Assembly: GCA_002412825.1 (NCBI GenBank)
Contig: DHVU01000009.1
Span: 35,323 to 99,322, forward strand
Source of the DNA: Spirochaetaceae bacterium UBA5200
GTDB taxonomy: Bacteria; Spirochaetota; Spirochaetia; Treponematales; UBA12059
Direction of reading: 5' to 3'
Length of the DNA: 64,000 nt
Part shown: one piece after another, positions 37,369-41,548 of the stretch
Layout: each line of letters starts with the position of its first letter
Position numbering within the stretch: the first letter of the stretch is position 1
The notes under the pieces: model-generated
What the model saw: the letters and a program-made list of their open reading frames with translations, nothing else
The model's database searches: none
Told to the model about the DNA's origin: nothing
Position numbers and translations under genes: made by a program

Positions 37369-37386
37369 CAAAGAGGTGAGGTGGCA

Positions 37387-37734
37387 ATGCCGGACGAATT
37401 AAGAATACTCTTGGCAAAGAACATAAAAACGCTCCGGGCATACCGCAGCATTACGCAGGATGAACTTGCCGAATATGCGGGCCTAACAAAAAATTACATC
37501 GCGGAAATCGAAACGCTGCGAAAGTATCCATCCTCCGTCAGATTTTTAGATATCGCCAGGGCCTTGGACGTTCCTCCATGGCTATTGCTCTACGAGGCGA
37601 ATAAAGTGCTTTCCTACCTCGCCGACGACGGCGAGGAGCTATCGGGCAGCGGAGAACTTGTACGGGAAATGACCGAGCTCCTAGAGCGCTACCGGAAGCA
37701 TGCTAAGAACAAGGATAAGCCAGACAAAGGCTAA
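37387..37734 (+). CDS. XRE-family helix-turn-helix transcriptional regulator
   Basis: LAKNIKTLRAYRSITQDELAEYAGLTKNYIAEIE is a typical HTH_3 motif. ATG 37387 follows GAGGTGAGG (the ORF track starts at GTG 37381). Confidence 0.8.
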   Translation: MPDELRILLAKNIKTLRAYRSITQDELAEYAGLTKNYIAEIETLRKYPSSVRFLDIARALDVPPWLLLYEANKVLSYLADDGEELSGSGELVREMTELLERYRKHAKNKDKPDKG

Positions 37735-37843
37735 TTTTGAGTATTTTTATCAGTTAAAAACCTATCGAGTCCTGGTCAAAACGCCCCTCTTCCGGTACAC
37801 TGATCCGGTACTGTCCGTAAACGATTTGACCGGAGCGCCCCGA

Positions 37844-40099
37844 ATGCAAGCCACCAGAACACGTATAGTCGCCGCCGTCGTTTTTAGCGCCCTGGCTTTC
37901 GCAGCCGTGCTCGCCGCCGGCGCGCAATTGTATAATCGCTCGAGCGCAAGCTTCACGCCCTCAATAACCCAGGCAACCGTACCCACGGTAGCGCCTGCCG
38001 CCGGGCCTCTTCCCATACCCTCGCTGGGGGGCGCCCTGCTCGGCGCTTCCGACGGCCTCTACCGGGTGGACGCGGCCGGGCGCATAAGCAAGCCGCTCTC
38101 GGGAACCGATGTACGGAAAATACTAAGCACCGAGCAGGGTTGGTACTTCTTGAGCGGGCGGGGCATACTGTTTAGCCGCGACCTGGTCAGCTTCGAAGAG
38201 CGCAACGCAGGCATACCGGTCAAAGTCATTAAGACCTACGATAACGGCCAGAAAGCCTTTGCCCGAGAAATACAGGAAATTAAGGACATAGAAGCCGACC
38301 CCTACAACCAGGCCACGCTGGTTATCTGCACCAAAGATGAAGTGTACCTCAGCCTGGACGGCGGCCTCAATTGGAAGAGTATTCCCTCGCCCGCCCCGCA
38401 GCCCGGCATAAAAGCGGTGGCGGTTACCAGTAAACCAGAGGGGCTCATCTTCGTATCGCATCCCATTAAAGGCCCCTTTGTACGGCCGCTGTCCGGCGGC
38501 TCCTGGCGGGAGATCGGCGGAGAGCTCGGCAAGAGCGACCCGGCTAATTCCAACCCCGACGAGATATCAGACATAGTCGTACAGGCAGGCCCCGAAGGCA
38601 CTATCGTATGGGCGGCTAATTCCTTCCTGCCGCGCAGCTACCGCTACGACTTTGCCTCGCGCCGATTCGTGCTCAGTTACCGGGGCGGTGAAGACTTCGC
38701 CAGCTACGAATCGCTGTTGCCCAGGCAGGACGGCCTCTATATTGTCAGCGAAGGCGCGGTGTTAAAGCAGGTGCACGCGGCTTCCGGCGCTTCAGGCCTC
38801 GCTGCCCCGCCGCAGCGGGCAGCGGCCCAGAGCAACGCGGTGCTGCTCGCCTCGCGCAGCATACCGAGCCAGCTTAACGCCATATGGATGAAAGAAGCCT
38901 CCGGACATACCATGGCGCTCTCCGAGCTGTGGCTCGTCGACATCAAGGACGAAAAGCCCTATCGGGCGCAGGCCGACGGCAGGCATGGTTTCTATCTGCA
39001 AACAGGCTTTATGGTTCACGAGGATTCCCGGGCAAAATACGACGCGGTCATGACCGATAGAAACCTGGATATGGTCGTCGTAGACGTAAAGGACGACTAC
39101 GGCCGCCTGCGCTTCGAGCCCCAGGATCCGCTGGTACGTTCCATCGGCCGCTGGGTAAGTCCTTTGGATATCGAGAGCTTCGTCAAGGAAATGAAGGCCA
39201 AGGGACGATACCTCGTCGCCCGCGTGGTGGTATTCAAGGACCAGAGGCTCTACGAAAGCGCGGGCGGCGCCTACGCCGTATGGGACAGGGTGGAGAATAA
39301 ACCCTGGCAGGGCTATGTAAACGAGAAGACTGAGTTGCCTGCCTCAGCCTCCCCCGGCGCCGCGAGCGGCATAGGCGCCACGGCCGCGGCCCCCGCCACA
39401 GTAACAACGCGAAAGTACTACGAAGAATACTGGGTTGATCCCTACAGCGAAAAGGTATGGGAATACAACATAGCCATAGCCAAGGAAATCATAGCCCGTG
39501 GCTTTGACGAGATACAATTCGATTACATACGCTTTCCTACCGACGGCGTCAACCTTGAGAACGCGCAGTATCGATGGAAGGACGCGGGCATGGATATGGA
39601 AAGCGCGCTCATGTCCTTCCTAAGCTATGCCCGCAAGCAAATCAAAGCGCCCATAAGCATAGACATATACGGCGCCAATGGCTGGTACCGTTCAGGCGTG
39701 CGCACCGGCCAGGACGTCGAGCTTTTATCGCGCTACGTCGACGTCATATGCCCCATGTTCTACCCCTCGCACTTTGAACAGGATTTTATGGCCTTCGAGC
39801 CGGCCATACAGCGCCCCTATCGTATCTACAAAATTGGAACCCTGCGCAACTCCTTTATATCCAAGAAGAAGACCGTTATACGGCCCTACCTGCAGGCCTT
39901 TTTCCTGAACGTGCGCTACGACAGGCTGTACTATAATCCCACCTACGTGAGCCTACAGGTCGACGGCATACGCGACGCCAGCAATGAGGGTCTTACCTTC
40001 TGGAACAATTCCGGCCGTTACGACGACATACCTATCCTGAAAACCACCGCCCAGCGGCGCTTGGCGGCAAGCGGATCGGAAAAGGCTGTTTTGGATTGA
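37844..40099 (+). CDS. Secreted/membrane-anchored protein: BNR (Asp-box) beta-propeller-like N-terminus plus putative glycoside-hydrolase TIM-barrel (DUF4015-like) C-terminus
   Basis: ATG 37844 gives the TM/signal MQATRTRIVAAVVFSALAFAAVLAA. Asp-box SLDGGLNW. C-terminus MVVVDVKDDYGRL...YWVDPYSEKVWEYNIAIAKEIIARGFDEIQFDYIRFP. Confidence 0.65.
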   Translation: MQATRTRIVAAVVFSALAFAAVLAAGAQLYNRSSASFTPSITQATVPTVAPAAGPLPIPSLGGALLGASDGLYRVDAAGRISKPLSGTDVRKILSTEQGWYFLSGRGILFSRDLVSFEERNAGIPVKVIKTYDNGQKAFAREIQEIKDIEADPYNQATLVICTKDEVYLSLDGGLNWKSIPSPAPQPGIKAVAVTSKPEGLIFVSHPIKGPFVRPLSGGSWREIGGELGKSDPANSNPDEISDIVVQAGPEGTIVWAANSFLPRSYRYDFASRRFVLSYRGGEDFASYESLLPRQDGLYIVSEGAVLKQVHAASGASGLAAPPQRAAAQSNAVLLASRSIPSQLNAIWMKEASGHTMALSELWLVDIKDEKPYRAQADGRHGFYLQTGFMVHEDSRAKYDAVMTDRNLDMVVVDVKDDYGRLRFEPQDPLVRSIGRWVSPLDIESFVKEMKAKGRYLVARVVVFKDQRLYESAGGAYAVWDRVENKPWQGYVNEKTELPASASPGAASGIGATAAAPATVTTRKYYEEYWVDPYSEKVWEYNIAIAKEIIARGFDEIQFDYIRFPTDGVNLENAQYRWKDAGMDMESALMSFLSYARKQIKAPISIDIYGANGWYRSGVRTGQDVELLSRYVDVICPMFYPSHFEQDFMAFEPAIQRPYRIYKIGTLRNSFISKKKTVIRPYLQAFFLNVRYDRLYYNPTYVSLQVDGIRDASNEGLTFWNNSGRYDDIPILKTTAQRRLAASGSEKAVLD

Positions 40100-40146
40100 G
40101 GAGTGGAGGCGGCTTCTAACTACTAGCTTCTGATTTTATCCTTTGG

Positions 40147-40591
40147 AATCTAGAATCTAGTAGCTAGAATGCTGCGCGGGTATCGGGGACCGAATCCCCG
40201 TCTTATTCTAGATTCTAGCTCCTAGATTCTAGCTTCTATCCACTGTTCTAGAATCTAGAATACAGAATCTAGAATGCTGCGCGGGTATCGGGGACCGAAA
40301 TCCCGTCTTATTCTAGCTTCTAGCTTCTAGCTTCCATCCACTGTTCTGGAATCTAGAATACAGAAGCTAGAATGCTGCGCGGGTATCGGCGGCCGAGTCC
40401 CGTCTTATTCTAGATTCTAGATTCTAGATTCTAGCTTCTATCCACTGTTCTAGAATCTAGAATACAGAATCTAGAATGCTGCGCGGTTATCGGCGGCCGA
40501 GTCCCGTCTTATTCTAGCTCCTAGATTCTAGCTCCTAGATTCTAGCTCCTAGATTCTAGATTCTAGATTCTAGATTCTAGATTCTAGATTC
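40147..40591. repeat. Hierarchical CTAG-rich palindromic tandem repeat array (4 higher-order units built on 7-bp TCTAGAA/TTCTAGA repeats)
   Basis: A GC-rich core GCTGCGCGG(G/T)TATCGG..CCGA..TCCCGTCTT starts at 40171, 40276, 40374 and 40478. Each core is flanked by inverted heptamer arrays. Stop codons occur in all frames. Confidence 0.9.
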
Positions 40592-40595
40592 TTTT

Positions 40596-40616
40596 CCCTC
40601 TTCCCTCTTCCCTCTT
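40596..40616. repeat. (CCCTCTT)x3 polypyrimidine microsatellite
   Basis: Three exact tandem heptamers directly abutting the CTAG array and 8 nt from the LUD gene stop. Confidence 0.9.
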
Positions 40617-40623
40617 CCGACAC

Positions 40624-41265
40624 TCAGTACCCCAGCGCCTGCCCCACTATTATCACCGTAAAGTCCGACATCGAAGGCCGCTTGCGGAGCACCTGATAGA
40701 TGCGGCAAATGCGCGTATCGCCATCGCAATCCATACATTCGCCGGTCTTTACGCAGGGATTGGGTTTGTCCAGGCGCTTATTGTTCATAGGCGCGGCATA
40801 GAGCTCCACATGGGCGAAGGCTTCATCCATGTCGCGGGCCAGCTTATTGACGCCGACGACGACCACGGTCTTGGCCGGGCCGAAGCTGAGGGCCGCCACC
40901 CGGTTGCCCGTACCGTCCACGTTCACGATCTGCCCGTCGAGGGTGAGGGCGTTGGCGCTGGATATGAACAGATCGCAACTGAGCTGCCTGCGCAGGATCG
41001 CGAGCTTTGCCTCGGGGCTCAGCCCAGGCGCGTTATGGTCGAGCAACTCGCAGCCCGCTTCGCGCGCCTTATCCTGTATACCAAGGGTCTTAATGGTCAT
41101 TGAGCCGCCGAAGCCTACGCTGGCGCCTTTTTTCAGGAAAGCCCCGAGCTTCTGAGCCGCTTCCTCGGCGCTTTCTACATAGAGGGCGTCAAAGCCGTTC
41201 TTCTTCAGAGCCGTAACCGCGGTAGCGGCTAAGGCGGCCGCATGCCAGCTTTCAATGGGGTTCAT
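40624..41265 (-). CDS. LUD-domain (lactate-utilisation/YkgG-like, DUF162) protein
   Basis: GFGGSMTIKTLG...FISSANALTLDGQIVNVDGTGNRVAAL...VVVGVNKL plus the C-terminal Cys cluster CVKTGECMDCDGDTRIC. Confidence 0.75.
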   Translation of the reverse strand: MNPIESWHAAALAATAVTALKKNGFDALYVESAEEAAQKLGAFLKKGASVGFGGSMTIKTLGIQDKAREAGCELLDHNAPGLSPEAKLAILRRQLSCDLFISSANALTLDGQIVNVDGTGNRVAALSFGPAKTVVVVGVNKLARDMDEAFAHVELYAAPMNNKRLDKPNPCVKTGECMDCDGDTRICRIYQVLRKRPSMSDFTVIIVGQALGY

Positions 41266-41342
41266 AGATGCCTCCTTGCATAGATATGCGCTTTTGTGCG
41301 GCCAGTATAAACGCTGGAGGATACTTTAGGAAGGGCAAACGT

Positions 41343-41425
41343 TGCCGGCAGTGGGACTTGAACCCACACGTCCTTGCGGACAGCAGATTTTGAGTCTGCC
41401 GTGTATGCCATTTCACCATGCCGGC
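41343..41425 (-). tRNA. tRNA-Leu (anticodon CAA), type II with long variable arm
   Basis: The minus strand reads GCCGGCATGGTGAAATGGCATACACGGCAGACTCAAAATCTGCTGTCCGCAAGGACGTGTGGGTTCAAGTCCCACTGCCGGCA. It has a 7-bp acceptor stem, anticodon loop CT-CAA-AA and T-arm GTGGG-TTCAAGT-CCCAC. CCA is not encoded. Confidence 0.92.
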
Positions 41426-41548
41426 TGGCGCTTCTTTGTACTATGCGGGCAAGCCAGGCGTCAAGGCAGGCTACTGACGGCCATATTCGGTCAATTTTTA
41501 TCTCATCGCCCTTGCTAGCCGCCTTATGCACAGGTACACTGAATTATT

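Follow-up and report, generated by a model that had tools for sequence, protein, structure and literature searches.

The convergent genes for a putative DUF4015 glycosyl hydrolase and a LUD-domain (LutC-like) protein of Spirochaetaceae bacterium UBA5200 are separated by a gap of 524 nt (positions 40100–40623 of the analysed stretch of 64,000 nucleotides, in the following called the window), and this gap is filled from 40146 to 40618 by four units of ~104 bp, which form a tandem array of a palindromic repeat. A first-pass annotation of the window had described here four cores with spacings of 105, 98 and 104 bp. The gap, the core starts and the spacings are borne out by the sequence and by Tandem Repeats Finder, which reports for the gap a period of 104 with 4.1 copies (score 577) and nested arrays of 7-nt repeats, two of which are given in Table 1. 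The proposed hierarchy of heptamer, hairpin unit and tandem array is thus supported. The hand count of about 35 CTAG tetramers was close to the 34 that we count within the gap; the remaining 63.5 kb of the window contain only 107, a rate at which ~0.9 would be expected per 524 nt. Outside the array CTAG is moderately under-represented (107 observed vs 188 expected from a Markov model and 234 from base composition). The array is non-coding, as had been stated: all six frames are closed by 11–17 stops each, and the longest open stretch has 29 amino acids.

An assembly artefact could be rejected, as the gap is identical across independent assemblies, with 0 mismatches in four different metagenome assemblies (L001–L004; the compared sequences are referred to by L numbers). 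These four represent one near-clonal population with 0–5 single-nucleotide polymorphisms (SNPs) per 20 kb, so that they confirm the sequence and teach nothing about polymorphism. In addition, the window is 100% identical to contigs of assembly GCA_003446465.1. Several short-read contigs end ~60 nt into the array.

From the alignment of all copies a common anatomy of the unit emerges. The left arm, GAATCTAGAATAsAGAATCTAGAAT, has a fixed length of ~3.5 heptamers, and its middle heptamer (ACAGAAT or AGAGAAT) gives rise to a conserved 2–3-nt mismatch against the right arm. The core of 33–34 nt is composed of GCTGCGCGGGTATCGG, NNN, CCGA, ~7–8 variable nucleotides and TCTT; its 5′ half GCTGCGCGGGTATCGG is invariant, and so is the junction TCTTATTCTAG that connects the core to the right arm. 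The right arm comprises 2–12 heptamers of the ATTCTAG, CTTCTAG or CTCCTAG type. The arms are 25–29 nt long and 86–96% complementary, with fuzzy outer ends as the arms are heptamer arrays, and in the window array the unit length ranges from 98 to 140 nt. At loci with a single copy the unit is flanked on the left by purine heptamers, (GGAGTCA)n or (GAGAGAG)n, which begin at the upstream stop codon, and on the right by pyrimidine-rich sequence; base-pairing between the two outer flanks is predicted for L011 and L012. The right flank of the window array, (TTCCCTC)x3.6, is the counterpart of the purine-rich left flanks of other copies. The outer purine heptamers look as if they were seeded by the last codons of the upstream gene (L012:3560–3590 and L014:2215–2250, both on the − strand): the DUF4015 gene is followed by GGATTGA and then GGAGTCA, and the LuxR-type gene of another locus (see below) by GAGGAGT-TGA-GGAGTCA, its Arg codon being AGG in the carriers and CGC in the element-free L026. 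Along the heptamer arms, CTAG takes turns with GANTC (GAATC, GATTC, GAGTC), and GANTC also occurs in the purine flanks (GGAGTCA)n of L012, L014 and L016.

The inverted heptamer arms and the hairpin proposed for each unit are confirmed by the predicted folds: each unit folds into one hairpin of 25–45 bp, the stems reaching ~45 bp when the flanks are included, and the fold z-scores of the whole region against shuffled controls are −12.7 for the + strand and −9.9 for the − strand. The RNAalifold consensus consists of the arm stem and an apical UCGG-NNN-CCGA hairpin, and most of the variation falls within the apical loop (GGA, CGG or CCG) and the 3′ side of the internal loop. The core-forward strand is at least as stable as its complement in all 12 units, by 0.1 to 15.7 kcal/mol, and contains 48 G·U pairs vs 22 in the complement. 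Only one locus has co-directional genes (L012/L015), and there it is the core-forward strand that is transcribed. A strand bias of this kind would be anticipated for a hairpin whose role is that of an RNA from the core-forward strand.

Table 1. Features of the array locus in the window
Feature	Position	Strand	Description
DUF4015 putative glycosyl hydrolase	37700–40099	+	PF13200, E=8.7e-81; stop codon directly abuts the element
Degenerate left flank	40100–40145	+	Purine-rich GGAGTGGAGGCGG from the DUF4015 stop codon, then degenerate partial unit
Unit 1	40146–40250	+	Left arm 40146–40170, core 40171–40204 (subtype A, CGGGG-ACCGAAT-CCCCG), right arm and spacer 40205–40250; nhmmer E=3.7e-24
Unit 2	40251–40348	+	Left arm 40251–40275, core 40276–40309 (subtype A), right arm and spacer 40310–40348; nhmmer E=1.3e-25
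Unit 3	40349–40452	+	Left arm 40349–40373, core 40374–40406 (subtype B, TCGG-CGG-CCGA apical hairpin), right arm and spacer 40407–40452; fold −45.5 kcal/mol (+) vs −37.9 (−)
Unit 4	40453–40592	+	Left arm 40453–40477, core 40478–40510 (subtype B, with GGTTATCGG), expanded right arm 40511–40592 of ~11.7 ATTCTAG/CTCCTAG heptamers (Tandem Repeats Finder: 11.7 ATTCTAG copies)
Pyrimidine-rich right flank	40594–40618	+	(TTCCCTC)x3.6 (Tandem Repeats Finder: 3.6 copies), 100% matches, ends 5 nt short of the LUD stop codon
LUD-domain (LutC-like) protein	40624–41265	−	PF02589, E=6.2e-46; stop 5 nt from the array

Within the window array the parts of the units have different genealogies, as the cores pair 1 with 2 and 3 with 4, whereas the right arms and spacers pair 1 with 3. 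This discordance points to repeated unequal exchange or conversion and not to one clean duplication. The left flank contains a partial fifth unit, consisting of right-arm-like heptamers (CTTCTAA-CTACTAG-CTTCTGA, 40112–40131; 70–85% identity to right-arm heptamer pairs) and a spacer-like TTTTATCCTTTGG, which is similar to the inter-unit spacer CTTCCTCCCTTTGG of L014 and L016. The inter-unit spacers of the window, CTTCTATCCACTG and CTTCCATCCACTG (40239–40250, 40337–40348 and 40441–40452), hold the motif TATCCAC, which corresponds to 7 of the 9 positions of the DnaA-box-like TTATCCACA. This motif is confined to the window array, the spacers of L014 and L016 being CTTCCTCCCTTTGG, and the match is probably due to chance.

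The unit is not confined to this gap. Scanning species-representative genomes with the exact pattern AGAATGCTGCGCGGNTATCGG gave matches in a Treponematales metagenome-assembled genome (MAG; L011) and on three separate contigs of a Spirochaetaceae MAG (L012–L014), and an ungapped scan of metagenomes added L015. The family thus occupies three unrelated loci in at least five spirochaete MAGs: the convergent DUF4015/LUD gap (locus i), the region between a LuxR/GerE-type gene and a co-directional gene for a peptidase-MA-like protein (locus ii), and a convergent gap beside an aldehyde:ferredoxin oxidoreductase gene (locus iii, L013). At all three loci the copies lie directly after stop codons, either in convergent gaps or from the end of one gene to the promoter region of the next. 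MAG PPR_0594 has at least 3 loci and the strain of the window at least 2, one of them within the 64-kb window. The second one is deduced from a contig of GCA_003446465.1, the MAG of the window strain itself (L023:1–60, DMAQ01000216.1). Upstream of its peptidase-MA-like gene this contig opens precisely with the last letters of a right arm, ‘...ATTCC’; its start very probably marks a second copy or array at the LuxR/peptidase locus of the window genome, on which the assembly was interrupted. At locus iii a separate GC-rich hairpin CAGGGGGACAGGCTCGCGCCCGCCTCCCCTG lies between the stop codon of the aldehyde:ferredoxin oxidoreductase gene and the element (L013:3285–3330), so that this gene seems to own its terminator and not to rely on the repeat. 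The relatives retrieved for this locus are not syntenic, and their comparison is uninformative.

Further searches delimit the family. A profile search with nhmmer of the window and ~250 kb of DNA of its relatives found no copies beyond the 12 units and a left-arm remnant in L024/L025. A gapped family pattern, which works locally, had 0 matches in viral and metagenome contigs, and an ungapped 20-mer, exact in window units 1–3, retrieved from the metagenome collection L015 alone. Neither metagenome scan recovered the window array itself, which is recorded in JGI 3300002700 and 3300040971; this points to a limited coverage of the collection, so that little follows from an absence there. No match was found by blastn of two units against plasmids and phages, nor by a literature search for the heptamer strings. 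Runs of (ATTCTAG)4–6 occur in viral contigs of IMG/VR (L032–L035; 23–31% GC, one of them a giant-virus MAG), with neither an inverted partner nor a core. We rejected these as family members, as they are plain and unrelated microsatellites, in which the ATTCTAG heptamer has expanded independently.

The first-pass annotation had already excluded a CRISPR array and a tRNA, which is supported by the anatomy of the repeat and by the Rfam searches. A CRISPR array was rejected, as each stretch of the 104-bp period recurs in its turn, unique spacers are missing and the neighbouring genes are those of DUF4015, LUD, XRE and GGDEF-EAL proteins. Integron attC sites, retrons and tRNA-like elements were rejected on anatomy as well, as R′/R″ boxes and a cloverleaf are missing and neither a reverse transcriptase nor an integrase is encoded nearby. 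In Rfam, the region had at E ≤ 10 only generic hairpin matches of microRNA models (≤31 bits vs thresholds of ≥66), and at the gathering score the whole window contained one tRNA only.

Orthologous gaps, which we located through the LUD protein orthologues, form a series at locus i. The gap holds 4 units in the window, 2 in L014 (94% LUD identity), 2 in L016 (93%) and 1 in L011, whereas it is free of the element in L017 (77%; ~12 nt), L018/L019 (73%; 52 nt) and L020–L022 (71%; 10 nt). A look for copies in relatives had been proposed by the first-pass annotation, and it has thus led to three loci and to 4, 2, 2, 1 and 0 units at orthologous positions. Judged by this series, the gaps show that one copy entered a convergent gap of 10–52 nt in the ancestor of a small Treponematales/Spirochaetaceae subclade and has been retained since, and that it was later amplified in place to 2 and 4 units with changing heptamer numbers. 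The amplification would have proceeded by unequal recombination or slippage between the heptamer arms. In one of the element-free records the 3′ end of the DUF4015 gene runs into Illumina adapter sequence, AGATCGGAAGAGCACACGTCTGAACTCCAGTCAC in reverse complement, at the contig end (L017:2969–3035, ERZ724098 NODE_17464); this end is an assembly contaminant in the public record.

At the LuxR/peptidase locus the element is found in several states: L012 has a full unit, L015 decayed arms and a 13-nt insertion in the core, L024/L025 a solo left arm, and in L026 and L028 nothing is recognisable. The remnant (L024:9830–9900, L025:1–27) consists of purine heptamers, a core-like TCGGCGGCCG and the solo left arm GAGCTAGAATACAGAAGCTAGAAG, which is joined directly to the downstream sequence. 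Its junction shows GAAkGCT microhomology with the boundary of left arm and core, which suggests a deletion.

The claim that the array defies every feature class was not upheld. With its dispersed copies, its presence and absence at orthologous sites and its decaying copies, it falls into a class that is already known, namely the small palindromic repeats of intergenic DNA. As in MITEs (miniature inverted-repeat transposable elements), we find a non-coding sequence of less than ~500 bp with terminal inverted repeats, dispersed copies and filled as well as empty orthologous sites. By its sequence the repeat belongs to none of the described families. What is new here is therefore an undescribed repeat family, seen in the window as an unusually large tandem array.

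The suspected slippage-prone nature of the locus is correct as far as species are compared, as the unit number varies (1, 2, 2, 4) and the heptamers differ between L014 and L016, with (GGAGTCA)x4 vs x2 in the flank and 7 vs 2 heptamers in the right arm. These differences indicate fast change in steps of 7 nt. Within species no evidence of slippage was found. A phase-variable contingency locus, in which the number of heptamers or units would switch the expression of the DUF4015 or the LUD gene within populations, would fit this variation between species and the slippage-prone nature of heptanucleotide repeats (PMC4679880). However, the array lies downstream of both genes and thus outside of promoter and coding region, it is identical in all near-clonal assemblies including one at 5 SNPs per 20 kb, and its substitutions are rarer than neutral, unlike those of a hypermutable switch; we regard this explanation as scarcely credible.

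Heptamer and unit numbers change quickly, while the first 16 nt of the core, the left arm and the TCTTATTCTAG junction are essentially invariant. Pairwise identity is 1.00 in the 5′ half of the core, 0.88 in the left arm, 0.89 in the junction and right arm and 0.64 in the 3′ half of the core. The fourfold sites of the flanking genes have identities of 0.65–0.70 between the window and L011, L014 and L016, so that the 3′ half of the core drifts neutrally, whereas finding no more than one difference among the 52 conserved positions would have under neutrality a probability of P = 5e-8. In the two-unit arrays of L014 and L016 we count 3 substitutions in ~175 nt against a fourfold identity of 0.73–0.79 (P ≤ 1e-13). 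A recent import by recombination was rejected as a cause of this similarity, since identity drops to 0.72–0.96 immediately outside the array and there is no extended tract of high identity. As the conserved block evolves far more slowly than synonymous sites, we infer that resident copies are under purifying selection, and presumably something recognises the block. On these comparisons the invariant block of 45 nt probably has a function. That an asymmetric block of this length stays invariant across species whose synonymous sites have diverged by 20–35% points to a specific trans-acting partner.

This conservation bears directly on the possibility that the element is a purely selfish MITE, mobilised by a transposase in trans, with the block as the recognition site of a transposase (or of an HUH/RAYT-like enzyme) and the array as a neutral by-product of slippage. 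The inverted arms, the presence and absence at two orthologous loci, the decayed copy of L015 and the solo arm of L024/L025 all agree with such an origin. MITEs are numerous in Spirochaetes (PMC11602168), the BOX, RUP and SPRITE repeats have been judged parasitic (PMC3049150), and by analogy the one-sided conservation of the internal loop may recall the recognition of single-stranded DNA hairpins by Y1/HUH enzymes (PMC3333891). However, orthologous copies whose residence predates the separation of the species show far stronger conservation than the fourfold sites; recognition by a transposase does not preserve immobile copies and would by itself not explain this. In addition, at either locus no direct repeat that could be a target-site duplication is visible, the empty sites being at 71–77% protein identity and the boundaries inexact, and no transposase or RAYT gene was seen in any of the retrieved loci. 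We consider an exclusively selfish element possible, although unlikely.

The first-pass annotation had also suggested a protein-binding array on the TCTAGA palindrome, for example for the neighbouring XRE regulator. In this case a regulator or nucleoid protein would bind double-stranded DNA at the TCTAGA or GANTC sites, which are spaced by 7 bp, or at the invariant core. In fact 17 of the 21 TCTAGA sites and 23 of the 118 GANTC sites of the window are inside the gap, and an invariant block of 16 nt suggests sequence-specific recognition. The gene of the XRE-type helix-turn-helix protein (37381–37734, + strand) overlaps the start of the DUF4015 gene; orthologues are present in the element-bearing L014 (4614–4964) and L016 (3716–3997) and absent from the element-free L020/L021. 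However, the right-arm sites vary freely from 2 to 12, and the asymmetric 5′ half of the core is most conserved and not the palindromes, so that we find no evidence for binding at TCTAGA. The co-occurrence with XRE is a single, phylogenetically confounded contrast, the promoter of the XRE gene has no arm-like motif, and the neighbours at the other two loci are unrelated. A binding array of this type is in our view improbable.

Our preferred reading, which we hold to be somewhat more probable than all others together, is that the element is a lineage-restricted and so far undescribed hairpin repeat of the MITE/REP/BOX/Correia kind, which most likely serves as a co-transcribed barrier or insulator at gene 3′ ends. 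It would be transcribed together with the adjacent gene or genes, at their 3′ end, and would act most likely at the RNA level. Transcripts of the DUF4015 gene, and in the reverse direction those of the tRNA-Leu/LUD region, would run into one to four hairpins of 25–45 bp, which could block read-through and 3′-exonucleases or be processed, and in this way insulate the convergent genes. A putative factor would recognise the internal loop on its conserved, single-stranded 5′ side. A role of the array as terminator or insulator or as structured RNA, also considered by the first-pass annotation, is a plausible proposal. A terminator-like motif, the small GC hairpin of the core followed by a T-rich tail, occurs four times on the + strand of the window (0.8 expected) and once in L013.

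The tRNA-Leu(CAA) gene (41343–41425, − strand) precedes the LUD gene by 78 nt in the same orientation, and tRNA, LUD gene and array may share one transcript. Overlapping with the tRNA is a spurious, mechanically called open reading frame of 89 amino acids (41262–41531). Between L014 and L016 no stretch is more conserved than the tRNA region, with an identity of 1.00.

Several observations weigh against a barrier or insulator acting as RNA. The terminator-like motif of the core was not detected in L011, L012 and L014, and thus a canonical intrinsic terminator is not a feature of the family; the long arm hairpin is trailed only by moderately U-rich heptamers. RNAalifold found covariation in 0 of 16 predicted pairs, with all paired columns invariant; compensatory changes are lacking because the stems are invariant, and evolution neither proves nor refutes the fold. 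The strand asymmetry in G·U pairs is partly a by-product of the purine/pyrimidine bias of the flanks, and the orientation relative to co-directional genes is informative at the L012/L015 locus only. The family is known from three distinct loci with 12 units, and the units are not independent of each other. Some copies decay (L015, L024), so that any function is dispensable at some loci. Finally, as target-site duplication, transposase and RAYT were not seen, the mobility of the element is inferred from presence and absence only.

The arrangement of a conserved block, a variable spacer of nearly constant length and a second conserved block would also fit a promoter in each unit, and the array would then amount to a series of small transcription units. 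From a sigma-28-like promoter on the − strand (TAAGA, 13–14 nt, GCCGATAC/A), antisense transcripts would run into the upstream gene; alternatively, the TAGAAT heptamers would serve as −10 boxes. Unit 4 of the window (W4) reads exactly GCCGATAA and the other units GCCGATAC, sigma-70-like TAGAAT matches occur at four loci (1 found vs 0.2–0.8 expected per region), and Correia elements are known to create promoters (PMC2649163). However, with up to one mismatch GCCGATAA is found 87 times in the window vs 74 expected. With a motif this common, and after the trial of several motif families, the match carries little weight, and we have downgraded the sigma-28 idea. The sigma-28 consensus has a spacing of TAAA-N15, and the spacing in the units is 1–2 nt short of it. 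The cores of subtype A read CCCGATAC, and the sigma-70-like matches are inconsistent in position and strand. Promoter activity as the purpose of the repeat is therefore very improbable in our opinion.

A more far-reaching reading is that the element has become a domesticated cis-acting module. The heptamer-built hairpin would present the invariant single-stranded CUGCGCGGGUA, beside the UCGG-NNN-CCGA apical hairpin, to a dedicated putative protein that binds RNA or single-stranded DNA, and between convergent genes the unit number (1, 2 or 4) would adjust an insulator, regulated and bidirectional, or a processing site. In place of a decaying transposon, the element would then represent a new class of structured non-coding RNA or DNA. 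We put this forward as a speculative and rather doubtful proposal.

Among the known systems, repetitive extragenic palindromic (REP) sequences are 20–40 nt long and have a conserved GTAG-type 5′ tetranucleotide. They and their composite bacterial interspersed mosaic elements (BIMEs), with which the Y1 transposase RAYT is associated, resemble the spirochaete repeat in being palindromes outside of genes, located at gene 3′ ends or in convergent gaps, in forming arrays that alternate inverted arms with two kinds of linker, and in having an imperfect stem with a conserved mismatch (PMC3333891). Unlike REPs, the spirochaete unit is at least 90 nt long, is directly repeated in tandem and has no GTAG-type motif at the foot of the hairpin.

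BOX elements of pneumococci are modular, with complementary end modules and an internal module that is variable in copy number. Like BOX, RUP and SPRITE, which transpose slowly, the spirochaete repeat is a small, interspersed, structured and non-coding repeat restricted to one species group (PMC3049150). Such repeats are expected to affect co-transcribed genes through their extensive secondary structure (PMC3049150). In BOX, however, only the internal boxB varies in number, whereas the spirochaete arms change by steps of 7 nt and the hairpin unit is repeated as a whole. The sequences are not similar, and BOX was judged parasitic, while the resident spirochaete copies are conserved well beyond neutral expectation.

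The heptanucleotide repeats of the TAACTGA type in Beggiatoaceae and cyanobacteria are likewise intergenic tandem 7-nt units with stops in all frames (PMC4679880), and their variable copy number is thought to be due to polymerase slippage (PMC4679880). They are direct repeats that lack an inverted partner as well as a conserved core and mostly lie a short way upstream of start codons. In the spirochaete element the heptamers are building blocks of the hairpin arms only.

The Correia elements of Neisseria (CREE/NEMIS) carry a TA duplication and are not known as tandem arrays of whole units. They belong to another phylum, have no sequence similarity to the spirochaete repeat, and occur in more than 100 copies per genome vs 3 known spirochaete loci. 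Their arms are a fixed 26-bp repeat, whereas the spirochaete arms are heptamer microsatellites, and the spirochaete element has no known integration host factor (IHF) site or TA duplication. Like it, they are intergenic elements of ~100–150 bp with inverted-repeat ends around a conserved core (PMC2649163), and most of their copies are conserved in position with some differences in presence and absence (PMC2649163). Correia elements are co-transcribed with neighbouring genes, their hairpins are bound or cleaved by RNase III, and they can create promoters (PMC2649163). REP, BOX and Correia repeats shape transcript ends, mRNA stability and genome rearrangement, and they have been characterised in only a few cultured model bacteria. 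The family described here comes from uncultured Treponematales and Spirochaetaceae and is unusual in combining stems of slippage-prone heptamers, by which arm length and unit number change quickly, with a strongly constrained block of 45 nt. As the element breaks short-read assemblies at every copy, its profile would in addition help to annotate and scaffold such MAGs.

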